Virus record (IMG/VR): IMGVR_UViG_3300035501_000524
From: a virus
Lineage: Duplodnaviria; Heunggongvirae; Uroviricota; Caudoviricetes
Direction: 5' to 3' (one strand)
DNA: 64,000 nucleotides
Below are positions 2,011 through 15,367 of the stretch, one piece after another. Positions within the stretch are counted from its first letter, which is position 1. The number at the start of each line of letters is the position of its first letter. Below the pieces are notes generated by a model, which saw only the letters and a program-made list of their open reading frames with translations, made no database searches and was not told the DNA's origin. The position numbers and the translations under genes are program-made.

Positions 2011-2011
2011 T

Positions 2012-2221: not shown

Positions 2222-2342
2222 TGTTTGTTCCCTCCTTTACTTTCTAAAGAAATTATACCAAAATTTTGGGAAAATGTCAATTCCGGAATATTAACCAAAA
2301 TTTGAGAAGAAAATTTGTATAGATTGACTATTGACGAAAAAC

Positions 2343-2400
2343 CGGCCGTCGCATGCGACCACGGCCGGCCAATTATACTACATCTTCTGGAATTTGTCAA
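2343..2400 (-). promoter_or_regulatory. Repeated-element copy A: minus promoter TTGACA (rc of 2395-2400), 17 bp, TATAAT (rc of 2372-2377), firing directly into the GC hairpin CCGGCCGT...ACGGCCGG (2343-2368) followed by TTTTT
   Basis: A promoter, hairpin and U-run with no ORF between them. It lies about 80 nt upstream of the promoter of 2012..2221. Confidence 0.5.
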
Positions 2401-2440
2401 GTAGTAAAATTGCATAAAAAAAAGAAGCCCGAAGGCTTCT

Positions 2441-2641
2441 TTAACTGTAGAAGTATGCGGCTTCCCTCATTTCCTCCTCTGTACATTCCACATGACACAT
2501 GTCAGTTGCGTATGCGGCGACTCCTACCCAGCTTCCGGGCTTACATCTTGCATTTGCAAGATGCTTAGCATCTCGAGCCTTTTCATTCTCAATCATTCTC
2601 GCAAGCGTTAAAGAAGTATTTACCAAACCACGAACATCCAT
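2441..2641 (-). CDS. Hypothetical small early protein, 66 aa
   Basis: Promoter TTGACA-17-TATAAT at about 2662-2692, leader ATCAAAAAGAAAGAGAGG. The terminator hairpin GAAGCC-cgaa-GGCTTC at 2424-2439 has a U-run on the minus strand. Confidence 0.5.
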   Translation of the reverse strand: MDVRGLVNTSLTLARMIENEKARDAKHLANARCKPGSWVGVAAYATDMCHVECTEEEMREAAYFYS

Positions 2642-2698
2642 TTCATTTTCCTCTCTTTCTTTTTGATAGAATCATTATATCATACCTTTTGGTTAATG

Positions 2699-2899
2699 TC
2701 AATAAGAATTTTCATAATCCACAACCATTTCTTTATATCTGCCGGAAATCGTATTTCTAAGAATCCGCCATACTCTCCAAATGGGATTTCCACCCGTAAA
2801 AGCTGAATGATAAACACTCTTGAAATTGTTTAAAGATTTTCTTTCCGTCCACGCTTTAAGTGCATGGTATGTACTTGCTTTAATGTTCCATTTTGCCAT
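2699..2899 (-). CDS. Hypothetical small early protein, 66 aa
   Basis: Promoter TTGACA-17-TATAAT at about 2925-2960, leader ATCAAAAGAAAGAGAGG. Confidence 0.5.
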   Translation of the reverse strand: MAKWNIKASTYHALKAWTERKSLNNFKSVYHSAFTGGNPIWRVWRILRNTISGRYKEMVVDYENSY

Positions 2900-2983
2900 T
2901 TTTCTTTTCCTCTCTTTCTTTTGATACTGTTATTATACCATAGCGTGGACTAGTTGTCAACCCCCTTTGGGGGAAACTGAGGA

Positions 2984-3361
2984 TTATTCCTCAGTTTCAG
3001 TGTTAAGGTAAAAGTATACCTTTCTCTTTTCCTCAATTCTGATGACTACGCCATCTTCTTTGAGCTGTCTCACAATAGCGGAGACTTTCTGGTTAGACAG
3101 CCCCTCAAGGCTTGCCACACCTTTCATAATCTCTGTTACTGTCGCTCTCTTGCCATCAGACAGGAAAGCTACAATGTCTGCTTTCAGACCTTCATTAGCA
3201 ACCTGCGTTGCTGTCGGTTTTCTCTCCGCAGAGTTCTTTTTAACAGTCTGCTCAAGAATTTTCTCAAGCTTTTCAATAACCTCTGTATTCGGGGTTTCCT
3301 GTGCTCCCAGAGTTGCGATTGCGATTTCCAGTGCCTTTTTGTTAGTCATTTTGTTTGTCAT
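2984..3361 (-). CDS. Early protein family A, paralog 2, 125 aa
   Basis: Strong similarity to 912..1289 and 5327..5710 (EKLEKILEQT.KKNSAERKPTATQ.ANEGLK). Promoter at about 3407-3437. Confidence 0.6.
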   Translation of the reverse strand: MTNKMTNKKALEIAIATLGAQETPNTEVIEKLEKILEQTVKKNSAERKPTATQVANEGLKADIVAFLSDGKRATVTEIMKGVASLEGLSNQKVSAIVRQLKEDGVVIRIEEKRKVYFYLNTETEE

Positions 3362-3993
3362 AGTATCAATTCCTTTCTGGTTTTTAGAACTTTTTCCTTG
3401 TTCCTTTTGATGTTTTTATTATATCATGTTTGATAATGGTTGTCAAGAGGTTTTTGAAAAAACTTTTTTGGGTGCTTTGCTTAGGTAAGTCTTGTTTATT
3501 TGATTGAATAGTTGGTTCCTTGCCATTCTTCAACTGGAAACCGCTTACACTCTAAGCAACTGTTTGGTTTTTCTCAACCTCTGTGACTCCATTATAACAC
3601 TCTCAGCTAAGATTGTCAAGTGTTTTTTTTTATTTCATCTTCTGGATTTTCGAGGAGCGCTCAACTCGTTTTCCTTCTTGATGCTTTTATTATATCATAG
3701 CTTGAAGTGTTTGTCAAGAAGTTTTTTTTATTTTTTTTTGAAGATGGCTCTTCCGACCGCCAATTACAACCTATCCAAGTTCGACTGTTAGGCAACTTCC
3801 TTCTTGACTATGTACTTATTATAGCACATCTGGTTTAGTTTGTCAAGAGGTTTTTTTTATTTTTTTTCTTTCGGCTTCTGGAAGCCTTTCCCTCCTGACA
3901 GTTATTATAATATCACATCTACCCCTAGAATACAATTGGTAAAATGCACAAATTTTGGGAAAAATATTTGTGCAGTTTTTTCACCGGTTTTGC

Positions 3994-4023
3994 TTGACAA
4001 AATGCTGAAGCCTGTGGTATAAT
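3994..4023 (+). promoter_or_regulatory. Repeated-element copy B: plus-strand promoter TTGACA (3994-3999), 18 bp, TATAAT (4018-4023), driving three consecutive hairpins at 4031-4057, 4055-4073 and 4077-4101
   Basis: Hexamers on the plus strand inside the minus-strand gene block. Downstream is GC-rich structured sequence with no ORF. Confidence 0.5.
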
Positions 4024-4082
4024 CGAAATTCTGGCCGCGTCAGTGGAAAGCGGCCAGCCCAATTATCGGGCTGACCTTAGGC

Positions 4083-4367
4083 TTACAGCTGATAGCCTAA
4101 GCCTTTCAGCAGGTCAATTAGCTGTTCACTCTTGGTGTACTGACGATGGTTCGGGATGAGTACAGCGGCTACCACCTCAGCTTTGTATCCGGTGTCGAAC
4201 TCCGGATCATCCAGAGCCTCCTGAGGAGTCATGAACTGGATGCGGTTGATGATGGTCACGTTGCCATCGGCGTCATTCGCATCGAGGAAGTCAGCCGCCT
4301 CAAACGGGTCAGCGAACAGTGCGTTGTATTCAGCTCCATTGATTGTCATGTAATATTTGTCTAACAT
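4083..4367 (-). CDS. Hypothetical early protein, about 94 aa (MLDKYYMTINGAEYNALF...); the track ORF start at 4541 was rejected
   Basis: Promoter TTGACA (rc of 4422-4427), 17 bp, TATAAT (rc of 4399-4404), and the leader ATCAAATGAAAGAGAGG lie inside the track ORF. The real ATG is at 4365-4367. Confidence 0.5.
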   Translation of the reverse strand: MLDKYYMTINGAEYNALFADPFEAADFLDANDADGNVTIINRIQFMTPQEALDDPEFDTGYKAEVVAAVLIPNHRQYTKSEQLIDLLKGLGYQL

Positions 4368-4510
4368 TTTCATTACCTCTCTTTCATTTGATAAGACTAT
4401 TATAATGCCTACGTGCCATTTTGTCAACCCATTTCGGGAAATTCGTTTAAAAAATTTTGCACAAAGATTTCCAAAAGAAAAACTCTGAACTATACAAACT
4501 GCACAAAAAC

Positions 4511-4570
4511 CGCCCCGCGCAAGCGTAATCGGGCGGCCCAATTATACTTCACCTTTTGGATTTTGTCAAT
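4511..4570 (-). promoter_or_regulatory. Repeated-element copy C: minus promoter TTGACA (rc of 4565-4570), 18 bp, TATAAT (rc of 4541-4546), firing into a GC hairpin at 4511-4537 followed by TTTTT
   Basis: Same architecture as copy A, flanked by several TGCACAAA motifs. Confidence 0.5.
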
Positions 4571-4641
4571 AGGCAAAATGCACAAAATTTTGATTCGTCA
4601 TTTTGCACAAAAACGTGCTTTGTGCAAATTGCACAAAAAAA

Positions 4642-4675
4642 ATGACCCCTATTTTCTGGGGTCATTTTTTTTAAA
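4642..4675. terminator. Bidirectional terminator: hairpin ATGACCCC-tattttct-GGGGTCAT with T-runs on both sides
   Basis: Perfect 8-bp GC-containing stem flanked by A8 and T8 runs. Confidence 0.6.
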
Positions 4676-4822
4676 CCAGCTGTAAGGTAAAGCGGTTTTC
4701 ATGTTCCAACAGATGCGCCTGTATTGCGCTTTTACCCTTTGCGAGAATCTCACCTGTTTCTAAATCCAAAAGAATGTTATCTGCATTTTTGTCGATTACT
4801 AAACCGAAATGTTTCATGTTTT
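4676..4822 (-). CDS. Small hypothetical protein, 48 aa (MKHFGLVIDKNADNILLDLETGEILAKGK...); not in the ORF track
   Basis: RBS AAAGGAGATAAAAAC before the ATG at 4820-4822, stop at 4676-4678. Confidence 0.35.
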
Positions 4823-4863
4823 TATCTCCTTTGCGCTTTTCCTATTTTTTGGTTTTTCGCCCC

Positions 4864-5232
4864 CTATTTTCTGGGGGCGCTCAAAACCACTTTGTATTTT
4901 GTATCATGGAAGTGAAAAACAAACTCTCTTTCTGGGTTCGCAACTTCATCAACCGCAATTCCCAAACTGTCAGACAACGCTTGAATCATGGTTGAAACCA
5001 GTTCTTCCTTGTCTGGATTCTTTTTCTTTTCCCTCTTGGAAGTATCAAACTTATAAGCTGTCACCTTTCTTTCAACCTGTCTTGCTTTCTTGGAAGCTTT
5101 TTCCTGTTCCTTAGATAAATCAAAAAGCTTTTCGCCTTTATCAATCCGCTCATCATCTTCAATCAGCTGAATTGCTTCTTCTCTTGTTAAACCGAGCAAT
5201 TTCATTTGCTTTGCAATCAGTTTTTCATTCAT
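4864..5232 (-). CDS. Early protein family B, paralog 2, 122 aa (KQMKLLGLTREEAIQLI SAP-like N-terminus)
   Basis: Paralog of 402..812. It lies immediately downstream of the family A gene 5327..5710, the same A-then-B order as 912..1289 and 402..812. Confidence 0.6.
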   Translation of the reverse strand: MNEKLIAKQMKLLGLTREEAIQLIEDDERIDKGEKLFDLSKEQEKASKKARQVERKVTAYKFDTSKREKKKNPDKEELVSTMIQALSDSLGIAVDEVANPEREFVFHFHDTKYKVVLSAPRK

Positions 5233-5326
5233 GCTGTTTTATCTCCTCTCTTTAGCTTATACTTTATTCTATCACAGCCGATTGAGATTGTCAAGGGGAA
5301 ATTTGCATTTCCCCTTGATTTTTTCT

Positions 5327-5710
5327 TTACTCTTCTTCCTCAGAAGAGTTGTAAGCGAAATACGCTTTCCGCTTTTCCTCGATTCTCACAACCAGATTTT
5401 CCTCTTTCAGATTTCTCACAAGAGCGGTTACTTTCTGGTTAGCAAGACCCTCGAGTTCCGGAACTTCTTTCATCAGTTCCGAAATTGTCTTTTTCTCACC
5501 TGTCGCTTTCAGATAAGCGAGAATGTTTTCTTTCAGACCCTCATTTGCGGTCTGAGTTGCTGTTGGCTTTCTCTCAGCCGAGTTTTTCTTGATTGTCTGT
5601 TCAAGAATTTTTTCCAATTTCTCGATAACCTCTGTATTAGGAGTTGCCTGAGCGTTCATAACCTCGATTGCGATTTCCAGTGCTTTTTTGTTTGTCATTT
5701 TGTTTGTCAT
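5327..5710 (-). CDS. Early protein family A, paralog 3, 127 aa
   Basis: Promoter TTGACA-17-TATAAT at about 5762-5795 with a long A-tract UP element. Confidence 0.6.
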   Translation of the reverse strand: MTNKMTNKKALEIAIEVMNAQATPNTEVIEKLEKILEQTIKKNSAERKPTATQTANEGLKENILAYLKATGEKKTISELMKEVPELEGLANQKVTALVRNLKEENLVVRIEEKRKAYFAYNSSEEEE

Positions 5711-5933
5711 AATACCTACCTCTTTCTTTCTTTTAATTTTTATTTTGTTTTCTTTATGTATTTATTATATCATAGGGTTTTATGTTTGTCAAGACTTTTT
5801 TTTTTATTTTTTTTTTCTTTTTTTTTATTTCACTCTTGACTTTCCTTCCCTTGCTACTCTTTAATGATACCACAGGTTGACTTGTTTGTCAAGCTTTTTT
5901 TTTATTTTTTTTTCGCCGTCCTTGTGGGCTTGT

Positions 5934-6632
5934 TTAAGCCCACAACTTCCGAACCATTTTCTTGTGCTGTTTAAAACAGTATGCAAGAATTTCTTTTTCA
6001 ATTAAAACATCTTCTAAACCAGTGTGGTTTTCAGAAAATTCATTGTTTTTTGAAATAAATCTGTAAAGGATTTCAGCGGTAAACCGAAGTCTGCCATTTT
6101 TGGTCAAATAACCATTTTCTTCACAAAATTTCTGATAAGTTGGCATTTTTCCAATAACCTGTCTTGACATTTTCAAAGTGTCGCAAATTTCAGTTCCATA
6201 AGGAAAGAAAAACCGATATTTTGATTTTGTCAGCCATCTTTGCGTATTATTTAAAGTTCCATAGTCAAAACGCATGTTGTGCGCATAGACTTCTTTTACC
6301 TCATAGAGTTTCATGTCATCTGCAAGCTGTTTTCTGATTTCATAGAAACTTGCAACAACTCTTTTGCCCTCTGCAATTTCCTTTTTATACATCGGAATTT
6401 TTTTTGCATAATAGCTTGACTTCATCAGCTCTTTTTCTTTATTGAAAATTTCATCAACAACAAAACTTCTTGCTACATACACAACACCCCTTTTATCAAC
6501 TACCGCCCAACCTATATCATAGGAAAACATGTTGCTAGGAAGAACATCTTCCAGAGTATTGTCAAGCGGACAACTCTCGCAATCTAAAACTACCTTGTAA
6601 CTAATTCTTCTGTCAATTTTTTTCTGCTCCAT
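5934..6632 (-). CDS. DEDDh-type 3'-5' exonuclease-like protein (DnaQ/RNase T/oligoribonuclease fold), 232 aa
   Basis: Candidate exonuclease motifs: I VLDCESCPLD (D.E), II YAHNMRFDYGTL (H/N..FD), III HTGLEDVLIEKE (H....D). Recognised from the motifs, not from an alignment. Confidence 0.45.
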   Translation of the reverse strand: MEQKKIDRRISYKVVLDCESCPLDNTLEDVLPSNMFSYDIGWAVVDKRGVVYVARSFVVDEIFNKEKELMKSSYYAKKIPMYKKEIAEGKRVVASFYEIRKQLADDMKLYEVKEVYAHNMRFDYGTLNNTQRWLTKSKYRFFFPYGTEICDTLKMSRQVIGKMPTYQKFCEENGYLTKNGRLRFTAEILYRFISKNNEFSENHTGLEDVLIEKEILAYCFKQHKKMVRKLWA

Positions 6633-6962
6633 TTCTTTTTACCTCTCTGTTCTTTATGTATTTATTATATCATGGAGTAGGAAGTTTGTCAAGCATTTTT
6701 TTTATTTATTTTTATTTTTTTTTTGTTTGCTCTTGACTTCTGTTCCCCTCAACTGATAAACCTATTATAAGCCTTTTCATCATAGAATACAATAGGCAAT
6801 CTGCACAAAGATGATAGAAAATTTTTGTTAATTCTGCCAGGAGTAAAAGTTGCACAAAGTTTTGCCATGAAGTTTGTGCAGGTTGCCCATTGACACGCCC
6901 CAGGCTAGCAAAGTGCCCAATTTCGGGAGAATTTAAGCGAGAAAATTTGTGCAACTTTTCGC

Positions 6963-6991
6963 TTGACAAAAGCTGAGCCGTGTGGTATAAT
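6963..6991 (+). promoter_or_regulatory. Repeated-element copy D: plus promoter TTGACA (6963-6968), 17 bp, TATAAT (6986-6991)
   Basis: Consensus hexamers. The transcript would begin at the GC hairpin 7001-7024 and end at the terminator 7081-7125. Confidence 0.55.
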
Positions 6992-7000
6992 GGAAATTTC

Positions 7001-7024
7001 GCCGGCCCAGGTGCGTGGCCGGCG
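7001..7024. other. GC-rich palindromic hairpin GCCGGCC-caggtgcgt-GGCCGGC lying between convergent promoters
   Basis: Stem read directly. Analogous GC hairpins occur in copies A, B, C and E with different stem sequences. Confidence 0.5.
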
Positions 7025-7028
7025 CGCC

Positions 7029-7057
7029 ATTTTACATCATCTCCTGGAATTTGTCAA
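7029..7057 (-). promoter_or_regulatory. Repeated-element copy D: minus promoter TTGACA (rc of 7052-7057), 17 bp, TAAAAT (rc of 7029-7034), converging on hairpin 7001-7024
   Basis: Hexamers read as the reverse complement. There is no gene downstream on the minus strand before the promoter of 5934..6632. Confidence 0.5.
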
Positions 7058-7080
7058 TAGGCAATTTAGACAAAAATTTA

Positions 7081-7125
7081 GAGTCAAGTTTATGCAACTT
7101 GACTCTTGACTTTTTACTTTTATTT
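7081..7125. terminator. Hairpin GAGTCAAGTT-tatgc-AACTTGACTC plus a T-rich run, the plus-strand terminator for the copy-D transcript; it also follows the stop of minus gene 7132..7341
   Basis: 10-bp perfect stem followed by TTGACTTTTTACTTTTATTTG on the plus strand, and by AAATTTTT on the minus strand. Confidence 0.5.
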
Positions 7126-7131
7126 GTCCCT

Positions 7132-7341
7132 TTAATCCTCGTAGAAATTCACTGGATAAATCTGCTCATCGTAGTAATAGCCTTCTTCTTCCATCTGTTG
7201 GCGCGCTTCTTCTTTTTCTTTTTCCTCGCTCTCTTTAAACCGATAGTTTAAATAATAGGTTTCAAAGGCTTGCATTGCTAACTCTTTTGTTGCGTACGCT
7301 CCAATGTCTCCATCACTATCCCAAACGTAAATTCTTTTCAT
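7132..7341 (-). CDS. Hypothetical small acidic protein, 69 aa
   Basis: ORF with an upstream promoter-like TTGACA at 7382-7387 (rc). Confidence 0.45.
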   Translation of the reverse strand: MKRIYVWDSDGDIGAYATKELAMQAFETYYLNYRFKESEEKEKEEARQQMEEEGYYYDEQIYPVNFYED

Positions 7342-7407
7342 TGTATCAACCTCTTTTCTTTTTTCTTTATTATACCACTGTTGACGCCCCCTGTCAAGGG
7401 GAAATTC

Positions 7408-7848
7408 TCAGAAGCTTCTGAGAATTTCCATGATGTTCTGAACATCGAAAGCATTTGCGCCCCATTCTGTTCTGTTTCTTTCTTCATCATCAAACAGGAA
7501 ACCTGTTCTGTCAGATACTACCGAACTTTTTGGTGTTCCATAAGTGACAATTTTGATTTCATCCCATTCAATACTCGGAAGATGTTTAGCAAGCCATTTC
7601 AGCTTTGTTGCGGTAACTTCTGCATTGAACTCTGGTGAACCACTCTTGGAAAGCCATGATACAATTCCGATTCTGTAACCGCTGTTCTGCAATCTGTGAA
7701 GCTGTCTTGCGAAACTTGAAAAGTTTAAAAGCGGTTTTGCAATTTCATAAGGTCTTGTGTTCGAGTTCATTAAATCTTCCAGCCATCCCTCTACTCCATA
7801 GAAGTTTGCGATTGTTCCATCCATGTCGAAATAAATTGTTCTTGTCAT
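7408..7848 (-). CDS. HAD-superfamily 5'(3')-deoxyribonucleotidase-like phosphatase, 146 aa
   Basis: N-terminal IYFDMDGTIANF (the DxDGT phosphoryl-acceptor motif of HAD and NT5C-type dNMP nucleotidases) and a later FDDEERN acidic motif. Confidence 0.5.
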   Translation of the reverse strand: MTRTIYFDMDGTIANFYGVEGWLEDLMNSNTRPYEIAKPLLNFSSFARQLHRLQNSGYRIGIVSWLSKSGSPEFNAEVTATKLKWLAKHLPSIEWDEIKIVTYGTPKSSVVSDRTGFLFDDEERNRTEWGANAFDVQNIMEILRSF

Positions 7849-7928
7849 TTTATCTACCTCTTTCTTTCTTTCTTTTGATAATATTATTATAACCTATTTT
7901 TTGGTAATTGTCAAGTATTTTCTTTTAA

Positions 7929-8048: not shown

Positions 8049-8103
8049 TTCATTTACCTCTCTTTTAAGTTATACCTTATTCTATCACAATCTTTTTAGT
8101 TTG

Positions 8104-9266: not shown

Positions 9267-9713
9267 TTAAAATTTTTCTGTAAAAATTACATAACCTTCA
9301 CGATAACCGCCGAAACAATCATCAAATTCTTTGTCACTACCTTCAATTTCATAATCGTTAATAAGATAATTAACTAACTGATTTCTAAATTTACGAATCC
9401 ATTTTCTATCTTTTCTTGCAAATTCTTTCATTTTATTATTCCAGAGGAATGTTCTTGTATTAACTTCCAGACCATCAGAATCAAAAGTCTCACAAATTTT
9501 TGGAATGTTTCTGTCAAGAACCTCTTTAGCCTGCTCCTCAGACCACACAAGCTTTTCGCCCTGTTTCTCTTTATATTTTTCAACTACTCGATATCCAACA
9601 TAGAGAGGATACAGAATCACTCTCATAACCTTGTAGCCATTCTCATTCCACCATTCTCTAACAATGTGTTCTCTTTTTACCTGTCTTGCATTCATCATTT
9701 CCTCAAATCTCAT
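9267..9713 (-). CDS. Hypothetical early protein, 148 aa
   Basis: ORF with promoter TTGACG-17-TATAAT at about 9745-9778. Confidence 0.5.
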   Translation of the reverse strand: MRFEEMMNARQVKREHIVREWWNENGYKVMRVILYPLYVGYRVVEKYKEKQGEKLVWSEEQAKEVLDRNIPKICETFDSDGLEVNTRTFLWNNKMKEFARKDRKWIRKFRNQLVNYLINDYEIEGSDKEFDDCFGGYREGYVIFTEKF

Positions 9714-9797
9714 TTTATTTACCTCTCTTTCTATCCTTACCTTGTAAATACATTATAGCATAGGTTTGTGAGTACGTCAAGCTTTTTTTAATTTTTT

Positions 9798-9935
9798 TTA
9801 ATTCCAATCATATTCCATGGCATCCTCATAATCTATATTATGACGCTTACACCAATTTTTAAAATTTTTTACTGAACCGCTTGCAATTACTACATCAATA
9901 TATTCTTCTGTTGTTAATTCATCAATTTTTCTCAT
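9798..9935 (-). CDS. Hypothetical small protein, about 45 aa (start at MRKIDELTTEEY)
   Basis: The leader is translated as SKEREVNKM at the front of the track ORF. Confidence 0.35.
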   Translation of the reverse strand: MRKIDELTTEEYIDVVIASGSVKNFKNWCKRHNIDYEDAMEYDWN

Positions 9936-10003
9936 TTTATTTACCTCTCTTTCTTTTGATAGTATTATTATAACGCCTTTACGTTCATTTGTCAATACTT
10001 TTT

Positions 10004-10210
10004 TTAAATTAGTTGAAAACAATTCATGATGTTAACGTAACTATTGCAAGAAAATTCTCTAACTGTTTTTGATAAAAATTTCAACATGATTTTTTTAACA
10101 ATAGTTTCTGGTAGAGTTTTTATCATTTCCCTTTCAATAGTATTGTAAATTCCATTTGGTAATTCATACATCTTCATGGTGTCAAACTCTTCTATTGTCA
10201 ATAATCTCAT
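10004..10210 (-). CDS. Hypothetical small protein, about 68 aa (MRLLTIEEFDTMKMYELPNG...)
   Basis: Promoter TTGACT-17-TATAAT at about 10232-10262, leader ATCAAATAAAGGAAGAGG. Confidence 0.45.
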   Translation of the reverse strand: MRLLTIEEFDTMKMYELPNGIYNTIEREMIKTLPETIVKKIMLKFLSKTVREFSCNSYVNIMNCFQLI

Positions 10211-10379
10211 TTTCAAGTTCCTCTTCCTTTATTTGATGATATCATTATACCACCACCCATTCCAGAAGTCAAGCAAAAATTGCACAAAAATTAAGTAAAA
10301 ATTTTGGTTATTTTTTCCTATTGTGCAAAGTGACGAAATTTCGGGATTCCGACCGGAAAATATTTGTGCAATCTGCCTA

Positions 10380-10408
10380 TTGACAAAATTGCGGGGTGGT
10401 GGTATAAT
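10380..10408 (+). promoter_or_regulatory. Repeated-element copy E: plus promoter TTGACA (10380-10385), 17 bp, TATAAT (10403-10408), driving GC hairpin 10418-10445 and then the bidirectional terminator hairpin 10464-10485
   Basis: Consensus hexamers on the plus strand within the minus-strand gene block. No ORF downstream. Confidence 0.5.
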
Positions 10409-10483
10409 TGAAAATTCCGGCCGCAAGGACAGTGCGCGGCCGGTCAAAAATTGAAACAAAAAAGAGCTAATTTCTTAGCTCTT

Positions 10484-10657
10484 TCACTTAAATATCAACT
10501 TAATAATTATCACCGCAACCCAAACCACAAAGGCCAAACCCCAGGTGAATGTAATGAACACTCCGGCAAACTGAAGAACAAACAGCAAAAGCCAAAGCAA
10601 GCCCGCAGTAAATAAGAAGTCAAGTAGTAATGTAAATAATACTGTTAGTGCTAACAT
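10484..10657 (-). CDS. Small hydrophobic membrane protein, 57 aa (two predicted TM helices); not in the ORF track
   Basis: ATG at 10655-10657 after AGAGAGGAGAAAAAG. An unusually long leader of about 100 nt, GC-rich, follows the promoter at 10758-10790. Confidence 0.4.
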   Translation of the reverse strand: MLALTVLFTLLLDFLFTAGLLWLLLFVLQFAGVFITFTWGLAFVVWVAVIIIKLIFK

Positions 10658-10787
10658 GTTCTTTTTCTCCTCTCTTTTGGAGGCTGAGAGCCTTTCCTCG
10701 GCATCGCCTCGTGTTCAAGACAACACTGGTACTTTTGGCTCCCGACACCTCTTTCTTGATGATTTAATAATACCACACTTTTGGTTA

Positions 10788-11036
10788 TTAGTCAAGCCTT
10801 TTTCTTGTTCTATTTACAGATTCAAGTAAACATGCATCAGCGAAAAAATAAATCACATGAGACCATTTTAAAGATTCTTTTGCATAGACTAACAAATCTT
10901 CTTCTGTTGGATTCTCTGGAATGCCTGATTTTCTCCAAGTGTCAATACTTTCTTGGCACTCTGTATTCATTACGTATTTCTCCATCTGTTGGAGCAAATG
11001 AAGTCTTATTTCTATTATTTCTTCCTTGCTATACAT
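10788..11036 (-). CDS. Hypothetical small protein, about 82 aa (start at MYSKEEIIEIRLH); its stop codon lies inside the -35 box of the next promoter
   Basis: ATGTATAG start/stop overlap with the upstream small gene. Confidence 0.45.
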   Translation of the reverse strand: MYSKEEIIEIRLHLLQQMEKYVMNTECQESIDTWRKSGIPENPTEEDLLVYAKESLKWSHVIYFFADACLLESVNRTRKRLD

Positions 11037-11169
11037 TGCGCTCCTCCTCTTGCTTAACAATGAACTGTAATAGTTCTATTAAGTCCTTTACATCATCTAT
11101 TGTCCCTATCTCAATGGCGTGTTCGCTATCACAACCATAGAAAATTTTATTATCTTGTTCAATGTTCAT
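11029..11169 (-). CDS. Small hypothetical protein, 46 aa (MNIEQDNKIFYGCDSEHAIEIG...); not in the ORF track
   Basis: RBS AGAGAGGAGAAGG. Start overlaps the stop of the upstream gene (ATGA). Confidence 0.3.
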   Translation of the reverse strand: MNIEQDNKIFYGCDSEHAIEIGTIDDVKDLIELLQFIVKQEEERNV

Positions 11170-11309
11170 TTTTCCTTCTCCTCTCTAAGAATTTTATTAA
11201 TGAGGTTTTTGATTTCTTTTAAATCTTCCAAATCGCAGTAAACTTTGTCGCCCCAACCGCCTTTAATTGTGTATGGATAATTTTTATCGTCGCTTCTTTC
11301 GATTGTCAT
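11166..11309 (-). CDS. Small hypothetical protein, 47 aa (MTIERSDDKNYPYTIKGGWGDKVYCD...); not in the ORF track
   Basis: Promoter TTGACA-17-TACAAT at about 11340-11372, leader ATCAAAAAGAAAAGGAG. Confidence 0.3.
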   Translation of the reverse strand: MTIERSDDKNYPYTIKGGWGDKVYCDLEDLKEIKNLINKILREEKEK

Positions 11310-11384
11310 TGTATGCAACTCCTTTTCTTTTTGATAATGTTATTGTATCACAGGGGCTGACATTTGTCAACCCCTTTTTTGAAA

Positions 11385-11798
11385 TTATTTCTGACTGATG
11401 TTAAAATCATCATTTCTATCATACAGATAGTTTGACATGAAGTCTGTTTCATCACAACCATTTACCATCATCAGAGAATACTCTTTATCTCCAAAACCAT
11501 AGAGAAGCTGTCTAATTGTTTTACCCTTTGCATAAGCATAACCGCATTCCCATGCTGTCCCGCTGTCTGAATACATCCCGAAGTTGAGAACCCACACTTC
11601 ATCAGCTTTGTCGATTGCGTCAACATCCTGCTGGAAAACCTTCCTACCCCATGTTGCATTGTCTAAATCCCACGCATTTTCAATTTCATGTTCTATTGGA
11701 GCGTAAACTTCCAAACCTTGCGCGCGCATCTTCTGGAGAATTTGAACATACATTACTCTTTCATTATTTTTGAACCATGGACTTGCTAAATAAATCAT
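11385..11798 (-). CDS. Nucleoside 2-deoxyribosyltransferase-like protein (NDT/RCL family), about 138 aa
   Basis: N-terminal MIYLASPWF, matching the IY.AGPWF motif of the NDT family, plus a later D.D..D...G..SDSGTAWECGYAYAKGK block resembling the family's catalytic-Glu region. Confidence 0.55.
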   Translation of the reverse strand: MIYLASPWFKNNERVMYVQILQKMRAQGLEVYAPIEHEIENAWDLDNATWGRKVFQQDVDAIDKADEVWVLNFGMYSDSGTAWECGYAYAKGKTIRQLLYGFGDKEYSLMMVNGCDETDFMSNYLYDRNDDFNISQK

Positions 11799-11987
11799 TG
11801 TATCAACCTCTTTCTTTTTTGATAATATTATAATATCATATTTTTTGGTAATTGTCAATAGTTATTTTTCACGTTTTAGGTTTGGACTTAATGCCCAAAC
11901 CTAATGTAGTGATTCATCCAGTTTTCGCTGAACTGCTCTTTGAACTCTTCCGCATACTCTGTATTATAACCCCTTCTGGGGCTTTTG

Positions 11988-12170
11988 TCAAGCCCCTTTT
12001 TCAAGAACTTTTATTAAATCTTCCTTTACGCAAAAGGTTCTTTTATCTCTCTTAACTGAAAAAGGACAGTTCATACAACCAATTCCAATACAGTTAGGCT
12101 CAATTAAAAGTTCGATTGCCTTAATCTCTTCTTCGTCCAGAAGTCCCCTTTTAACAACAACAGTTTTCAT
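11988..12170 (-). CDS. Small Cys-rich protein, about 60 aa (CIGIGCMNCPF...C)
   Basis: Leader AAAAGAGAGGAATTAAAAAG before the ATG at 12168-12170. Confidence 0.4.
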   Translation of the reverse strand: MKTVVVKRGLLDEEEIKAIELLIEPNCIGIGCMNCPFSVKRDKRTFCVKEDLIKVLEKGA

Positions 12171-12241
12171 CTTTTTAATTCCTCTCTTTCTTTTGATGTA
12201 TTTATTATAGCATGAAGGTTGACGTTTATCAACCCCCAATT

Positions 12242-12394
12242 TTAATCATCCTCTGTTTCCCAATATTCATCATCTTCATCCCAGAATGCCGCGAAATCAT
12301 CACATTCTTCTATTGGATTATCAATTCCGCAAGTTCCATCTTTCTTCCAGTGGGGACAATCCCAACCATTAACAGGACAATACACTTTCTTCAT
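12242..12394 (-). CDS. Small Cys-rich protein with acidic tail, 50 aa, family C (NGWDCPHWKKDGTCG...EECDDF...DDEYWETEDD); not in the ORF track
   Basis: Promoter TTGACA-17-TATAAT at about 12420-12455. Shares the WDCP...G.C...acidic-tail pattern with 169..309. Confidence 0.4.
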   Translation of the reverse strand: MKKVYCPVNGWDCPHWKKDGTCGIDNPIEECDDFAAFWDEDDEYWETEDD

Positions 12395-12463
12395 TTTTAT
12401 CAATTCCTTTCTTCTTTTGATATTATCATTATAACATGGATTGACTTAATTGTCAACAAGAAA

Positions 12464-12937
12464 TTATAATTTCTTGTTGATTTCTGTTACATTGTATTTC
12501 ACATGATATTTCTGCAAAATATCTTTGATGATAGCACTTTCTTCTCTGGTCTTACTGAAAATGTCGATGTTGTAATAGGTTTCATCTTTGTAAACTACTT
12601 CACCACAAGTATAACTAACTGAGAATGGTTCTAACTTGTTGACTAACTCTTTATCTTTTGAAGTAACTGAGATTTTCCACAAACAATCTTTCTTGCATTT
12701 TTCCATGAGCCAAATTGACGCATACACACCAATTAAATTAGTTAAGATGGTTACCGTAACAGTGATACCTAAGTCAAGACTAGCTAACTGTTTAACCACA
12801 ACCGCGTAGAATCCGTAGGACAGTGCGTTGATTGCCGCCGCGGTCTTTTTACCTGCGCGCACGGTTAAGATTGATTTCATTGTTGACAGCATTACATTGA
12901 TTAAACTACATGTAAAAAATATTATAATTGCTTGCAT
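12464..12937 (-). CDS. Membrane protein, about 157 aa: N-terminal transmembrane segments and a C-terminal soluble domain
   Basis: Start at MQAIIIFF after GAGAGAGGAG. The hydrophobic N-terminal half is read directly from the translation. Confidence 0.5.
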   Translation of the reverse strand: MQAIIIFFTCSLINVMLSTMKSILTVRAGKKTAAAINALSYGFYAVVVKQLASLDLGITVTVTILTNLIGVYASIWLMEKCKKDCLWKISVTSKDKELVNKLEPFSVSYTCGEVVYKDETYYNIDIFSKTREESAIIKDILQKYHVKYNVTEINKKL

Positions 12938-13008
12938 TTCTTTTATTCTCCTCTCTCTTGGAACTATAATTATTATACCCCGAAAGGGGTTATTTGTCAA
13001 CCCCTATT

Positions 13009-13386
13009 TCATTTATTTCTTAACATTTTAATTTCATTTTTGATTGCATTAATAGCTTCTTCACATTCAGCGATTTTCTTTTTCTTAGTTGTTTCTTTCA
13101 TTGTTTTACTTGCATAGATTCTATTTTCTTCTGCAAACCATCTATTCAGACTACGCGTTTTGAATTCAATAGTTCTCTTCTGAGAAGCTAATTCCCTTGC
13201 CTTTTTCTCTTCTTTGTTGTCGCCTCTAACCTCTACGATTTCTACCATTGCTACAGTTGCAATTCCATTTTCATTTGTTGAGATGGTTTTAAAATAATCT
13301 CCTACGTGATATTTTTTAGCTTCTTTATTAGAAATAGTTGCTACTACGTATTCTTCATGACCATTTCTTGCGATAATCTCTTTCAT
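13009..13386 (-). CDS. Hypothetical early protein, 125 aa, Lys-rich C-terminus
   Basis: ORF with promoter TTGACA-17-TATAAT at about 13430-13465. Confidence 0.5.
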   Translation of the reverse strand: MKEIIARNGHEEYVVATISNKEAKKYHVGDYFKTISTNENGIATVAMVEIVEVRGDNKEEKKARELASQKRTIEFKTRSLNRWFAEENRIYASKTMKETTKKKKIAECEEAINAIKNEIKMLRNK

Positions 13387-13482
13387 TTTATTCCACCAAA
13401 TCCCTTTAGGATTTCCCTTTCTTTATTATGTAATTATTATACCATGGGGCTGACCTTTTGTCAACCCCTTTTGGAAAATTTT

Positions 13483-13908
13483 TTAAAATAATTTCGCAAT
13501 ACCTCTGTCTCTCAGATACTCACACAACTCCTCAGCAGAAAGCACCTCAGCAAGCTTTTTAATCTTCAAGCTTCTCTCTTCCTCATAGACTACCTTGACG
13601 CCAAGAGATTTGAACTGTTTCTCTGTACAGGTTTCAACCATTTCTGGATACTTAGGAACTGTAAAACGCAGAAGAGGTTTTTTCTTAAAGAATGTTTTAC
13701 CTATCTCAGCGTTCATGATTATTCCGCTCTCTACAATCTCCTTAGCATCTTCAAAGCTAGTAATTTCATCAATTTCAAAGCTTCGTTCTTTGGCTTCTTC
13801 TTCCTCTAGATAGAAATAATGGTTATAGATGTTAGTTGGCATCCAGTTCTTCTCTCCATTAAGTTTAATGTATGTGCTATGGCTGTAAATCTTCTTCATT
13901 ATCATCAT
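13483..13908 (-). CDS. Hypothetical early protein, about 140 aa; exact start uncertain because of the MMIMKK cluster
   Basis: Promoter TTGACA-17-TACAAT at about 13930-13965. Confidence 0.45.
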   Translation of the reverse strand: MMIMKKIYSHSTYIKLNGEKNWMPTNIYNHYFYLEEEEAKERSFEIDEITSFEDAKEIVESGIIMNAEIGKTFFKKKPLLRFTVPKYPEMVETCTEKQFKSLGVKVVYEEERSLKIKKLAEVLSAEELCEYLRDRGIAKLF

Positions 13909-14081
13909 GCCCTTTCTTATCTCTTTTGATGATACTATTGTATCACACATAGCTTACTTTGTCAACGTCTTTTTTCACAAAAATAACAAGCTGTTTTTGT
14001 GCAAGTTTCACTGTGTTAAATTTTTAACGATCTTGCCCCTGCGGTCCGAACGTAGAAAAAAGAAAAGGCGGATTTCCCGCC

Positions 14082-14300
14082 TTATTCTTCCTCTTCTTCT
14101 TCCCACCCATCATCAAGCAAGCTAAACATCAACCTGTCAAGCAGGTCTTCAAGCTGAACACAAACCACGCTGAAACCAAGTCCGCAAAGACCACCTACCA
14201 AAAGAGACCAAATAGACAAGCCTGCGTAACCCCATGCAAGACCAGCTCCCAGAAGTACACAAATAACAGCCGTAATTTCAAACCTTGTTTTTTCGTTCAT
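14082..14300 (-). CDS. Small membrane protein, 72 aa: two predicted TM helices and an EEEEE tail
   Basis: Promoter at about 14352-14386 and a purine-rich (AAAAG)n leader. Confidence 0.5.
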   Translation of the reverse strand: MNEKTRFEITAVICVLLGAGLAWGYAGLSIWSLLVGGLCGLGFSVVCVQLEDLLDRLMFSLLDDGWEEEEEE

Positions 14301-14375
14301 TTCTTTTTCCTCTTTTCTTTCTTTTCTTTTCTTTTCTTTTTTACATTATTATAATATCATATTTTTTGGTAATTG

Positions 14376-14576
14376 TCAATACCTTTTTTCACGTCTTGTT
14401 ACAAGAACTTTATTCCCGTCTATCTCCTGAATACATACCTCATTTAAAGCCCCTGTATAGTGTATAGCTAATAGGGTATCTTCAGCAGACAGGGTGTGAT
14501 TCTCTGCTAGTGTATCTCCTGTATCTGTATCTATTAGTCTTTCCCAGTCTTCACTCTTAATTAGTGTTACTCTCAT
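14376..14576 (-). CDS. Hypothetical small protein, about 66 aa (start at MRVTLIKSEDWERL)
   Basis: ORF in a compositionally less AT-rich segment. Confidence 0.35.
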   Translation of the reverse strand: MRVTLIKSEDWERLIDTDTGDTLAENHTLSAEDTLLAIHYTGALNEVCIQEIDGNKVLVTRREKRY

Positions 14577-14632
14577 AGTATCATCCTTTCTTTGGCTTGC
14601 TATCATTGTGATAGCAAGCCTTTATCGCTTGC

Positions 14633-14896
14633 TTAGTGTGCATTGATGTATGTCACTATCTCATCATCTGTTATGTCCTCTGTGCCCAGGCTGTCCATGA
14701 CCAGTGTTACCCTGTCGCCCATGCTCATAGCTACATCTTCCATCACCCAGAGATAACCATCTGTATCTTCCAGCCCTACATACTGTACACCATCATACTC
14801 ATTGACCTCATACACTACAGCCTTCACTGTGTACATGTCTGTCTGTGCTGTGCTACCTGCCATCATCATTGCCATTGCTAATACCATTGCTTTCAT
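14633..14896 (-). CDS. Small secreted protein, about 87 aa, with a predicted signal peptide (MKAMVLAMAMMMAGSTAQTD)
   Basis: Hydrophobic N-terminus followed by A.T. Promoter TAGACA-17-TATAAT at about 14912-14945, overlapped by a perfect 15-bp inverted repeat. Confidence 0.45.
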   Translation of the reverse strand: MKAMVLAMAMMMAGSTAQTDMYTVKAVVYEVNEYDGVQYVGLEDTDGYLWVMEDVAMSMGDRVTLVMDSLGTEDITDDEIVTYINAH

Positions 14897-14968
14897 CATC
14901 GTCTATCGACTCCTTTCTTTCCTTACCTTGTAAACACATTATAGCACACACACTGCTCCCTGTCTACT

Positions 14969-15012
14969 GGCAGATTGCACAAACTTCATCATACATCTTT
15001 GTGCAATCTGCC
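14969..15012. promoter_or_regulatory. Perfect 15-bp inverted repeat GGCAGATTGCACAAA-N14-TTTGTGCAATCTGCC; operator-like, made of TTGCACAAA half-sites
   Basis: Read directly. It sits between the minus promoter of 14633..14896 and a plus-strand TTGACA-17-TATAGG promoter at 15015-15043. Confidence 0.5.
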
Positions 15013-15049
15013 TATTGACACTCACTAATTACAACATTATAGGAATGTG

Positions 15050-15223
15050 ATGATTAGCAAGCGTGCATGCCTCTTGGATCGAGAAATATTGAGCCGTCAC
15101 GTCAATCGAAAATTCGGTCCATCTCCTGCGTCAATGGCCCGGTGCGCAGCGCTCGCGCGACACGCCTCTCAGAAAACGCGACAATACGTTTTAGACATTT
15201 TTTCCGAGATAGTTTTGAAATAA
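15050..15223 (+). CDS. Candidate 57-aa basic protein on the opposite strand inside a GC-rich island (MISKRACLLDREILSRHVNRKFGPSPASMARCAALARHASQKTRQYVLDIFSEIVLK)
   Basis: Plus-strand promoter TTGACA (15015-15020), 17 bp, TATAGG (15038-15043). AGGA is 5 nt before the ATG. GC content is much higher than the surrounding phage sequence. Low confidence; the region could instead be a non-coding RNA. Confidence 0.2.
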   Translation: MISKRACLLDREILSRHVNRKFGPSPASMARCAALARHASQKTRQYVLDIFSEIVLK

Positions 15224-15367
15224 AAAATCATTAGACTGAATGATGCTTAGTGGGGGGTGTATTTCGGGAGAAAAAATTTTTTCATTTTGAATTTGATATT
15301 CCTCTGGCCATAATTCCCACCAAATCGATTTCAGAAACGAGATTACGATATTATCTCTTTCAAAATC

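Follow-up and report, generated by a model that had tools for sequence, protein, structure and literature searches.

What are the cassettes of promoter, hairpin and short repeated boxes that recur between the early genes of this phage? We analysed a window of 64 kb (the whole stretch of DNA under study; genome GC ~33%) from an uncultured large siphophage whose host probably belongs to the gut Clostridia. About 40 early genes are read from the minus strand, each with a consensus sigma-A promoter, and a phage sigma-factor gene and the late genes come next. Within 17 kb there are 29 promoters with a 12/12 match to the consensus, the 12/12 cassette promoters among them. Without exception, the cassettes occupy the space from one early gene's terminator to the next one's promoter, and each also holds that promoter of the downstream minus-strand gene. 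All copies have the same orientation, and all their plus promoters aim at the late-gene block.

Composition of the cassettes

A sequence-only reading had described six copies, A to F, and all six were recovered at their proposed positions (Table 1). The promoters that it had assigned to the plus strand in B, D, E and F and to the minus strand in A, C and D were also found: B(+), D(+), E(+), A(-) and C(-) match at 12/12, and F(+) and D(-) have the -10 elements TATAGG and TAAAAT. The perfect inverted repeat reported in F is likewise present. A GC hairpin at the transcription start, claimed for every copy, was confirmed for A-E, which each have a perfect hairpin of 6-8 bp; in F, however, a degenerate 27-nt homologue lies ~70 nt downstream of the start. 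The T-runs said to follow several hairpins are confined to A and C, on the minus strand. The description of the copies as stand-alone promoter-hairpin-terminator modules suits D(+), E(+), A(-) and C(-), but neither B(+), which has no terminator nearby, nor F, which is a different, larger unit: here, as in relatives, the hairpin forms part of a conserved non-coding stretch that also has iteron-like repeats, a G-run and an A6T6 tract. With no T-run to end it, the predicted B(+) transcript would continue into gene 4083-4367 in antisense orientation. The G-run, box 2 and A6T6 motif of F is kept in ~55 relatives, always on the plus strand and upstream of the sigma gene. Overall, the earlier interpretation is partly supported.

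The proposed operator-like half-sites are enriched beyond chance. Box 1 (TGCACAAA) has 19 exact matches in the window against 3.45 ± 1.77 expected (100 shuffles, none of which reached 19); 18 of them lie in the first 17 kb and 17 in the six cassettes, which make up ~2% of the window. A looser 9-mer with one mismatch allowed showed no window-wide enrichment (39 versus 32.7), and the box 1 signal is therefore the exact core and its clustering. The second motif, held to be conserved in each copy, is so as box 2, ATTTYGGGA, with exactly six matches, one per cassette and all on the plus strand (six were reached by 1 of 100 shuffles), whereas the exact AATTTCGGGA is restricted to D and E. Box 1 (TTTGTGCAAA) and box 2 (ATTTCGGGA) sites share a cassette block of ~100 bp. 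Box 1 adjoins the -35, with which it forms an imperfect inverted repeat (TTGTGCAA-N8-TTGACAA), and box 2 lies within the spacer of the downstream-gene promoter in many relatives. Judged by this placement next to or across promoters, the motifs sit as operators would; the AbrB-like phage protein is just one of at least two candidate binders. The cassette core as a whole is a long imperfect palindrome of operator, -35, -10, hairpin, -10, -35 and operator.

Table 1. Elements of cassettes A-F and of a partial seventh site, in window coordinates
Site	Feature	Position	Strand	Remarks
A-F	box 2 starts	2263, 3952, 4431, 6920, 10338, 15261	+	one per cassette
A	promoter of downstream gene 2012-2221	2252-2280	-	TTGACA-17-TATAAT; box 2 (2263-2271) in spacer
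A	hairpin	2342-2368		8-bp GC stem, 11-nt loop, 27 nt; TTTTTCG next on minus strand
A	minus promoter, at 2400	2372-2418	-	12/12; -10 ends 3 nt ahead of stem
A	box 1-like TTGCATAAA	2410-2418	-	upstream of minus promoter
B left (3904-3975)	minus promoter	3904-3935	-	weak -35; TTGTAT-17-TATTAT
B left	box 1, two copies	3945-3952, 3967-3974		
B left	box 2	3952-3960	+	
B unit (3994-4057)	plus promoter	3994-4023	+	12/12 consensus, 18-nt spacer
B unit	hairpin	4031-4057		after plus promoter; perfect Watson-Crick stem
B	further hairpins	4055-4073, 4076-4101		
C left (4399-4465)	promoter of gene 4083-4367	4399-4427	-	
C left	box 2	4431-4439	+	adjoins -35
C left	box 1	4458-4465		
C unit (4500-4569)	minus promoter	4541-4569	-	12/12 consensus
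C unit	hairpin	4510-4536		after minus promoter; perfect Watson-Crick stem
C unit	TTTTTGTGCAG with box 1	box 1 at 4500-4507	-	past hairpin
C right (4579-4663)	box 1, four copies	4579, 4604, 4619, 4630		
C right	bidirectional terminator	4644-4663		of upstream gene
D left (6764-6953)	minus promoter	6764-6792	-	weak -35
D left	box 1, four copies	6802, 6851, 6873, 6946		
D left	box 2	6920-6928	+	
D core (6963-7057)	plus promoter	6963-6991	+	12/12 consensus
D core	hairpin	7000-7024		between the facing promoters; perfect Watson-Crick stem
D core	minus promoter	7029-7057	-	-10 TAAAAT
D	bidirectional terminator	7080-7106		ends predicted D(+) RNA (~115 nt); also serves upstream gene 7132-7341
E left (10244-10370)	promoter of gene 10004-10210	10244-10272	-	
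E left	box 1	10281, 10321, 10363		one mismatch at 10321
E left	TGACGAA and box 2	10331-10346		
E unit (10380-10485)	plus promoter	10380-10408	+	12/12 consensus
E unit	hairpin	10417-10443		perfect Watson-Crick stem; A-rich linker next
E unit	neighbour's terminator	10462-10483		predicted E(+) RNA ~65 nt
F divergent pair (14938-15043)	promoter of gene 14633-14899	14938-14966	-	
F divergent pair	perfect box 1 inverted repeat	14969-15012		GGCAGATTGCACAAA-N14-TTTGTGCAATCTGCC; between the promoters
F divergent pair	plus promoter	15015-15043	+	TTGACA-17-TATAGG
F	degenerate 27-nt hairpin homologue	15115-15141	+	one T.C mismatch; AAAATT just ahead
F	G-run, box 2, A6T6 palindrome	15252-15283	+	
Partial seventh (13937-14004)	promoter	13937-13965	-	no hairpin
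Partial seventh	box 1-like, two copies	13973-13981, 13996-14003	-	upstream of promoter

Conservation of the hairpin and its tuning to the transcribed strand

Relatives share the cassette: among 59 of their loci that span at least 15 kb, 49 hold at least one promoter-abutted GC hairpin. A strong hairpin follows 47% of sigma-A-like promoters on the plus strand versus 8% on the minus strand. Rfam families, GenBank phages and the literature gave no match to the cassette. Among 64 distinct hairpins there are 29 different stems, yet 98.2% of the cells in their alignment are paired, with double changes at 6 of 8 pairs. The covariation score was 0.525 versus 0.145 in shuffles (reached by 0 of 500), and slid controls paired at just 29-48%. 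The hairpin is exactly 27 nt long in 37 of the 64; its loop of 9-11 nt varies between the copies of the window and has a conserved CGT whose G is invariant. Covarying stems and motif-wise conservation show that the cassettes are real, selected non-coding promoter-hairpin units and not decayed genes.

The cassettes take three forms: a plus promoter alone, a face-to-face pair, or a minus promoter with hairpin and U-tract. The hairpin is fitted, as RNA, to the local promoter: its fold is more stable on the strand which that promoter reads (Mann-Whitney p = 2.4e-6), with stability favouring the transcribed strand 14 to 5 in the plus-only class and 22 to 2 in the minus-only class and favouring the plus strand 17 to 0 in the dual class, statistics that overstate independence because the hairpin copies share descent (with hairpins of like loop collapsed: 10:4, 2:10 and 10:0). 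G.U pairs obey the same rule.

The geometry also differs by strand. The -10 ends 7-8 nt ahead of the stem in 28 of 39 plus promoters versus 2-4 nt in 40 of 44 minus promoters. With transcription starts predicted solely from -10 positions, the plus start would fall 0-2 nt ahead of the stem (B, D, E) and the minus start within it; a start 6-8 nt past the minus -10 weakens the hairpin from -17.8 to between -13.9 and -8.8 kcal/mol. Past the hairpin, the U-richness of the minus strand is 5.5/8 in the minus-only class versus 2.8-3.6 in the other classes. A terminator-like site lies within 260 nt for 37 of 39 plus RNAs, whose median predicted length is ~97 nt.

A possible boundary role and its rivals

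We propose, with a probability of about 0.4, that each cassette is a regulated module which marks a boundary between early transcription units and restarts transcription there, built on one RNA hairpin and yielding short hairpin-capped RNAs, non-coding or antisense, as by-products. Four features missed by the earlier reading point to this role: a single orientation for all copies, promoters that face each other, a minus start within the stem and conservation throughout the family. In the minus-strand direction, the cassette begins with the upstream gene's terminator and a same-direction consensus sigma-A promoter, continues with the GC hairpin (plus a U-tract in A and C) and, in B, D and E, a consensus plus promoter aimed back at the upstream gene, and ends with the box 1/box 2 block and the downstream gene's usually weaker promoter. 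On the minus strand, the full hairpin, with its U-tract if present, may stop polymerases leaking from the upstream gene. Because the minus -10 ends so close to the hairpin, the embedded promoter's own transcripts would begin inside the 5' arm; with a truncated stem they may largely escape the hairpin stop. The plus promoter would yield a short RNA with a 5'-terminal stem-loop, ending at the neighbour's bidirectional terminator or antisense in B, and its transcription would oppose leak-through head-on. Since box 1 and the -35 form an inverted repeat, a bound phage DNA-binding protein would exclude sigma region 4. Such a candidate regulator would shut all promoters of the set together, repression rather than activation being our guess, and coordinated switching could give the genes behind each cassette separate timing. 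Against the boundary reading, a second stop seems superfluous where the upstream genes are already equipped with terminators; cassettes of the plus-only form (E) lack a promoter at the hairpin from which to restart; and B(+) has no close terminator. The conserved CGT and the 27-nt length are a hint that the hairpin is specifically recognised, a property that the model does not require.

Consensus promoters without a following ORF, strand tuning and many copies per genome would also suit another reading, which we consider unlikely: each cassette would encode abundant immediate-early small RNA that acts in trans through its hairpin. The expected products, ~30-35 nt from the form with minus promoter, hairpin and U-tract and ~50-140 nt from the plus promoter, could be decoys or sponges, with an RNA-binding factor, a nuclease or an RNA-sensing defence of the host as target, or could partner a phage protein. 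The plus RNA, with a stem-loop a few nucleotides from its 5' end and a terminator at its 3' end, is shaped as stable small RNAs of Gram-positive bacteria classically are; length and CGT loop are moreover kept despite the 29 stems. However, a free stem sequence and loops that differ among the window's copies make sequence-specific targets unlikely, Rfam has no matching family, and the minus promoter's RNA misses part of the stem, which would be odd if the hairpin were the product. That minus start also tells against a loading site for a processive antiterminator, in the manner of lambda nut/N, HK022 put or PR'-tR'/Q. There, only short terminated RNAs would form without the factor, and with it polymerase would read through many early terminators, turning on delayed minus-strand genes or shutting off early genes by plus-strand antisense transcription towards the late genes. 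Antitermination control classically shows itself in a strong promoter that meets a terminator at once, as in A and C, and in short terminated RNAs, as predicted on the plus strand; a promoter-proximal hairpin selected as RNA and the aim of the plus promoters fit as well. We nevertheless judge this improbable. We saw no partner motif resembling boxA, and the loops exceed the 5 nt of boxB; a scan of early proteins revealed none recognisably like N, Q or NusG; the sigma-factor gene is served by a conserved promoter of its own; and each genome has at least five sites, where known systems have one or two.

Equally doubtful is an element that acts as DNA or is selfish. As a recombination hotspot it could shuffle early modules like the promoter-early stem-loops (PeSLs) of T4-type phages (PMC2839356, PMC4122927), or it could serve as an origin activated by transcription, as a nicking site or as an extruded hairpin to which a protein binds. 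Comparison with near-identical phages indeed shows a mosaic early region whose breakpoints fall at promoter regions, in one case within cassette E, and the palindromic core and the larger unit of F would fit. But breakpoints also fall at ordinary early promoters, the F motif and contig ends do not coincide, loops of 9-11 nt disfavour cruciform extrusion, and a DNA hairpin cannot explain strand-specific G.U tuning that follows the promoter.

Comparison with known systems

PeSLs and cassettes are both short promoter-plus-stem-loop composites, repeated many times between small variable early genes, and in both cases the differences between related phages include exchanged modules, with the element at the breakpoints. 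In a PeSL, however, a terminator precedes an early promoter, both in gene direction, whereas the cassette has the promoter first and starts at or inside the hairpin; it also adds operator boxes and often a second, facing promoter. The window's ordinary early promoters, such as GGGGTTGACA...CCCC at 13464 and 9257, are the better PeSL analogue.

Convergent-promoter and antisense switches include IS10 RNA-IN/RNA-OUT and P22 ant/sar. Coliphage 186 pR-pL is a further one, covered along with transcriptional interference in PMC3675496 and PMC5001618. The cassettes resemble these switches in their facing promoters, overlapping transcripts, a short stable stem-loop RNA as one product and regulators (here predicted) next to the promoters, and mutual exclusion of polymerases would be expected. 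The predicted starts in D are ~24 nt apart, versus 36 (IS10), ~69 (P22) and 62 (186); unlike in the three switches, the overlap has no ribosome-binding site, each genome has at least five copies, and one-promoter forms exist.

Lambda PR'-tR' (6S RNA) with Q, nut/boxB with N and HK022 put combine a strong promoter, a short terminated RNA and a promoter-proximal hairpin, a combination that the cassettes share. The cassettes differ in having no boxA, larger loops and no recognisable antiterminator gene, in being multi-copy and on both strands, and in having no operon directly behind the plus units. In the early/late switch region of phi29, A2c/A2b/A3 with p4 sites, the rightward promoter drives the late operon. 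This is also a Firmicute phage with divergent early- and late-direction sigma-A promoters around a shared block of repeated regulator sites, but it has one such region, whereas rightward cassette promoters are predicted to give only short or antisense RNAs, with a hairpin. Finally, 5'-terminal stabiliser stem-loops, as in the ermC leader and SP82 early RNA, protect Gram-positive mRNAs. Whereas no coding sequence lies behind the cassette's stem-loop, the likeness is a stable stem-loop a few nucleotides from the 5' end, here set by a plus -10 that ends 7-8 nt ahead of the stem.

Anatomy of the cassettes

The six repeated intergenic cassettes A to F (2260-15300) had been described in a sequence-only reading as combining operator-like half-sites, a conserved motif, near-consensus promoters and a GC-rich hairpin at the transcription start. 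All of these items are present in the sequence, some needing correction. The operator-like repeat, box 1 (variants TTGTGCAA, TTGTTGAA and TTGTTCAA), is enriched: there are 19 copies of TGCACAAA where 3.45 ± 1.77 are expected, and 0/100 shuffles reach 19; 18 of the copies lie in the first 17 kb and 17 within the six cassettes. The box 1 9-mer with one mismatch showed no enrichment. Each cassette has a single box 2 (ATTTYGGGA), always on the plus strand, and these six are all that the window contains. The named promoters were all found, and the perfect inverted box 1 pair of F was confirmed. For the hairpins, a whole-window scan returned five perfect ones but none at the start of F, and the T-run said to follow several of them exists in A and C, on the minus strand only, and not elsewhere. 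The interpretation offered with these items is supported in part.

The cassettes share one orientation and one order of parts. Read on the plus strand, the promoter of the downstream minus-strand gene comes first, followed by box 1 and box 2 sites, TTGACA with an abutting box 1, a spacer and −10 (in B, D and E), GAAATT, the hairpin, CCAATTATAC (which in A, C and D serves as −10 for a minus-strand promoter), the −35 of that promoter with its own box 1, and the terminator of the upstream gene. The plus −10 is absent from A and C, so that TTGACA stands 5-6 nt from the stem and its complement forms a minus-strand U-tract after the hairpin. In D, two promoters stand face-to-face across the hairpin, with predicted starts ∼24 nt apart. 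Box 1 and the −35 together make TTGTGCAA-N8-TTGACAA, an imperfect inverted repeat, and a protein occupying it would mask the −35. The layout resembles that of a repressor operator set: (pseudo)palindromic repeats overlap or abut promoter elements, box 1 at the −35 and box 2 in spacers. The signature of an intrinsic terminator, a GC-rich hairpin with a U-tract on the transcribed strand, is found on the minus strand of A and C and in the minus-only class of relatives, and on neither strand of B, D and E. The heptamer TGACGAA, which fits the Spo0A-box pattern TGNCGAA, occurs three times in the 64 kb, in cassettes A, C and E only; it directly precedes box 2 in E and just precedes the hairpin in A. 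A Spo0A-box reading was rejected, with 3 copies against 5.3 expected window-wide, though all three lie in cassettes.

Positions of cassette parts and associated features (window coordinates unless another locus is named)
Feature	Position	Strand	Remark
Perfect GC hairpin, A	2342-2368		whole-window scan
Perfect GC hairpin, B	4031-4057		whole-window scan
Perfect GC hairpin, C	4510-4536		whole-window scan
Perfect GC hairpin, D	7000-7024		whole-window scan
Perfect GC hairpin, E	10417-10443		whole-window scan
Perfect inverted box 1 pair, F	14969-15012
Degenerate hairpin homologue, F	15115-15141		27 nt
GGGGGGTGTATTTCGGGAGAAAAAATTTTTTC, F	15252-15283
TGACGAA	2332, 4594, 10331
Hairpins without TTGACA/TATAAT	L062 240; L074 701		examples in related loci
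AbrB/MazE-like gene	15911-16174		87 aa, adjoining F
Paralogue genes	912-1289, 2984-3361, 5327-5710	-	125-127 aa
Sigma-factor homologue	16963-17973	+
nnnGAAAAATTTTTnGG-spacer promoters	16859-16887, 32747-32775, 43681-43709	+	sigma-A-like
Tandem consensus promoters	3380-3925	-	four
Tandem consensus promoters	5715-5930	-	two
Promoters with −35 in GGGG...CCCC	9229-9257, 11342-11370, 12972-13000, 13436-13464	-
Structured non-coding stretch	1-165		extends past left edge (L084 8262-8660)

Cassette F has no hairpin at its start and carries only the degenerate homologue. Its plus promoter reads into ∼230 nt that are non-coding and richer in GC; a structured RNA was rejected here, the transcript folding worse than shuffles (z = +1.7). 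The stretch ends at GGGGGGTGTATTTCGGGAGAAAAAATTTTTTC, which consists of a run of G whose length varies (4-8 G), then box 2 and an A6T6 palindrome. This motif is kept in ∼55 of 80 relatives (L004-L080), always on the plus strand and 1-4 kb upstream of the sigma gene. In relatives it is preceded at 100-160 nt by an AAATTC-hairpin with covarying stems and followed by a conserved CTGGnCAnAAC...AAATCAATTT block and 1-3 iteron-like repeats. The site looks like a unique cis-acting one and may be, e.g., a transcription-activated origin or a packaging site. A genome end (cos) was rejected, as the ends of contigs do not fall at the motif.

Hairpins and promoters across related loci

An exact 23-mer, TTTGTGCAATCTGCCTATTGACA, is present in three IMG/VR contigs, surrounded by motifs of the same kinds. 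Using the sigma-factor protein, we gathered 228 related loci and fetched 80 of them (68-99% identity). Of the 59 relatives' loci of 15 kb or more, 49 have one or more consensus promoters that abut a GC hairpin. Among 757 distinct sigma-A-like promoters, a strong hairpin follows 54/115 on the plus strand (47%) and 51/642 on the minus strand (8%). Three forms recur in the relatives: plus only, dual (19 distinct face-to-face cassettes), and minus only with a U-tract. Consensus sequences from the relatives place box 1 upstream of hairpin-type promoters and an A-tract instead upstream of ordinary early promoters; box 2, in the form TCCCGAAAT, is located within the downstream-gene promoter's spacer in many relatives. 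One clade (L023, L062, L069, L073, L074 and L081) has the same hairpins after box 1 and ...GCTAAAAATCTAAAAAT, without a TTGACA/TATAAT promoter. The clade may use another kind of promoter, or box 1 may itself take the place of the −35.

Pairing is perfect in all 64 distinct hairpins, among which 29 different 5' arms occur; stems are of 6-10 bp and loops mostly of 9 or 11 nt, and 37 of the hairpins are exactly 27 nt long. We tested covariation in a gapless alignment of 34 hairpins. Pairing held in 98.2% of cells, and both sides had changed in 6 of 8 pairs (55 cells). The covariation score was 0.525 versus 0.145 in shuffles, none of 500 reaching the observed value, and sliding the partner lowered pairing to 29-48%. 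The loop has one invariant position, a G within a CGT consensus.

We then folded the stem-loop alone in both orientations. The plus RNA was the more stable in plus-only cassettes, 14 to 5 (10:4 after collapsing similar loops), and in dual cassettes, 17 to 0 (10:0), and the minus RNA in minus-only cassettes, 22 to 2 (2:10, plus to minus). The classes differ in stability with a Mann-Whitney p of 2.4e-6, and G.U pairs track the same strand rule (Fisher p = 0.007); both p-values are generous because the hairpin copies are related by descent. The hairpin is under selection, and it is selected as RNA.

Promoter spacing differs between the strands. The end of the plus −10 is 7-8 nt from the stem in 28/39 cases, which puts the predicted RNA start 0-2 nt ahead of the hairpin. 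For the minus −10 this distance is 2-4 nt in 40/44, so the predicted start falls inside the 5' arm. The hairpins average −17.8 kcal/mol, and starts 6, 7 and 8 nt past the minus −10 leave −13.9, −10.9 and −8.8. The 8 nt after the stem contain 5.5 U in the minus-only class and 2.8-3.6 in the other classes. A terminator-like site lies within 260 nt for 37 of 39 plus RNAs, whose median predicted length is ∼97 nt; in the window, the plus RNAs of D and E would be ∼115 and ∼65 nt long. The plus promoter of B has no close terminator, and its predicted transcript runs antisense through the gene at 4083-4367.

Phage setting and candidate binding proteins

The window is part of a large siphovirus with a GC content of 28-39%. 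About 40 small minus-strand genes occupy 1-16916; the gene for the phage sigma factor begins at 16963 (phrog_5767, E = 1.5e-49), and 3' of it lie terminase-like, portal and virion genes and that of a 3386-aa tape-measure protein (PF10145). The nearest named relative of the portal protein is that of the human-gut phage phAss-1 (40% identity), more distant ones belonging to 130-140 kb Enterococcus, Lactococcus and Bacillus phages. Clostridia (Eubacteriales) are the predicted hosts of the phAss-1 group (PMC10607447), and the phAss-1 paper mentions neither promoters nor hairpins. The first 24 kb of phAss-1 are without such cassettes, and we rejected it as a carrier. The phage family, one of uncultured 130-200 kb gut phages, probably has Clostridia as hosts.

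The early region has 29 promoters that match TTGACA-17-TATAAT at 12/12 positions, almost one for each gene; besides a conserved leader, most have a TG extension and an A-rich tract upstream. Many ordinary early promoters have their −35 inside a GGGG...CCCC terminator-like hairpin (GGGGTTGACA...CCCC), so that one gene's terminator overlaps the next gene's promoter. Two tandem arrays of consensus promoters leave 60-100 nt without an ORF between each promoter and the next; they could yield further short RNAs or stack promoters before the 125-aa paralogue genes. Three sigma-A-like promoters, which precede the sigma gene and two late operons, have a common spacer type, nnnGAAAAATTTTTnGG, and may form a separately regulated class; the one before the sigma gene is kept in relatives. 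The sigma-factor homologue has a C-terminal segment (residues ∼262-335) with matches to HNH, endonuclease VII and Lar-like zinc-finger families; such a fusion is unusual in a sigma factor. At the left edge of the window lies a non-coding stretch, rich in GC and strongly structured (z = −4.5), that starts with AAAAATTC and a hairpin and continues past that edge, in the locus L084, with repeats of CATATGAG...GTGAGCAAAAA. It has no Rfam match, and the L084 sequence past the window's edge contains no further cassettes.

Two kinds of protein are candidate binders of the boxes. The AbrB/MazE-like protein (PF04014, E = 2.8e-4; phrog_4681, E = 7e-9) has a homologue at the same place in the related locus L055. 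The three 125-127-aa paralogues of the cassette region are 64-74% identical and match a MarR-type winged helix weakly (phrog_1687, E = 2e-5); a PDB sequence search with a 125-aa paralogue gave nothing significant (E = 1.2). Two of their genes lie just downstream of cassettes B and D. An 88-aa gene left of F was rejected as a regulator, having no family match and a translated N-terminus like that of a small secreted or membrane protein. Protein-family scans of ∼30 early proteins returned almost nothing.

Proposed role, alternatives and known systems

In the most economical reading, the cassette would be a regulated boundary-and-restart module. The full hairpin would stop minus-strand polymerases leaking past the upstream gene's own terminator. 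An embedded minus promoter would start inside the stem, so that its RNA would partly escape the hairpin. The plus promoter would fire head-on against leak-through and leave a short RNA with a 5' stem-loop cap, while one or two DNA-binding proteins at the box sites would control the whole promoter set together. We infer this biological role, and its four steps, from sequence geometry. The design is unusually compact, with two consensus promoters ∼24 nt apart across one hairpin; a minus start inside a terminator stem would halt incoming traffic yet pass local initiation. The cassette also yields a testable regulon map of about a dozen promoters with two common operator types, a set of predicted short RNAs, and strong, insulated promoters that Firmicute synthetic biology could take up as ready-made parts.

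A small-RNA role for the cassettes stays alive, as the boundary-and-restart model does not explain why the loop keeps CGT, why the size is fixed at 27 nt or why plus-only cassettes exist. In its boldest form, the 27-nt hairpin RNAs would be a new multi-copy, immediate-early family acting in trans, which would extend the phage small RNAs by a new class; shape and the conserved CGT of the loop would be the means of recognition, e.g. as decoys for a host RNA-sensing defence, a nuclease or an RNA chaperone. Alternatively, the face-to-face pairs, whose minus start is G-rich and whose plus start is A-rich, could be nutritional toggles that tie promoter choice to GTP and ATP pools in Firmicutes. We consider either idea improbable. 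Antitermination is less likely than the boundary-and-restart reading: a lambda-type nut site, lying downstream of the promoter of an early operon, pairs boxA with a boxB hairpin of 5-bp stem and 5-nt loop, and our alignments contain no boxA-like conserved partner beside the larger cassette loops.

A DNA-level or shuffling role is also less likely. Between 7400 and 13500, comparison with the related loci L004 and L006 (sigma gene 99% identical) gives blocks of 88-99% identity alternating with unrelated inserts and breaking at conserved promoter and leader sequences, a mosaic like PeSL shuffling in T4-type phages. T4-type PeSLs (PMC2839356, PMC4122927) flank variable early ORFs and swaps break there; of the breakpoints against L004 and L006, one lies in cassette E (10288/10358) and most lie at ordinary promoters. 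In PeSLs, a stem-loop terminator is directly followed by an early promoter in gene orientation, whereas in the cassettes the promoter precedes the hairpin. Fold stability that tracks the transcribed strand is not the pattern of a DNA-only element.

Rfam gave 0 matches at gathering score in the window and only sub-threshold chance matches in 2000-16000, no tRNA or tmRNA was found, and GenBank phages contained no similar DNA (megablast of 2000-16000; blastn of cassette D). Literature searches on face-to-face promoters and PeSLs returned analogues only, including convergent-promoter interference in phage 186 and related systems (PMC3675496, PMC5001618). Cassette D and the dual cassettes share with IS10-type convergent-promoter control face-to-face promoters, overlapping 5' ends and a stable stem-loop RNA. 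The IS10-type overlap covers the ribosome-binding site or start codon of the target, whereas the next start codon downstream is several hundred nt away from the overlap in these cassettes. Hairpin promoters of the N4 type, with a virion RNA polymerase gene and hairpins of 5-7 bp stem and 3-nt loop at early starts, were rejected: the 3386-aa ORF encodes the tape-measure protein, not such a polymerase, and the cassettes have loops of 9-11 nt together with consensus sigma-A promoters. The cassette has parts in common with each of these analogues. As it lacks a defining feature of PeSLs, of nut sites and of IS10-type control, and no Rfam family, GenBank phage DNA or paper matches it, we place it in no named family. 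It is built from known kinds of parts: a real, multi-copy, family-wide and undescribed element of ordinary components in an unusual geometry.
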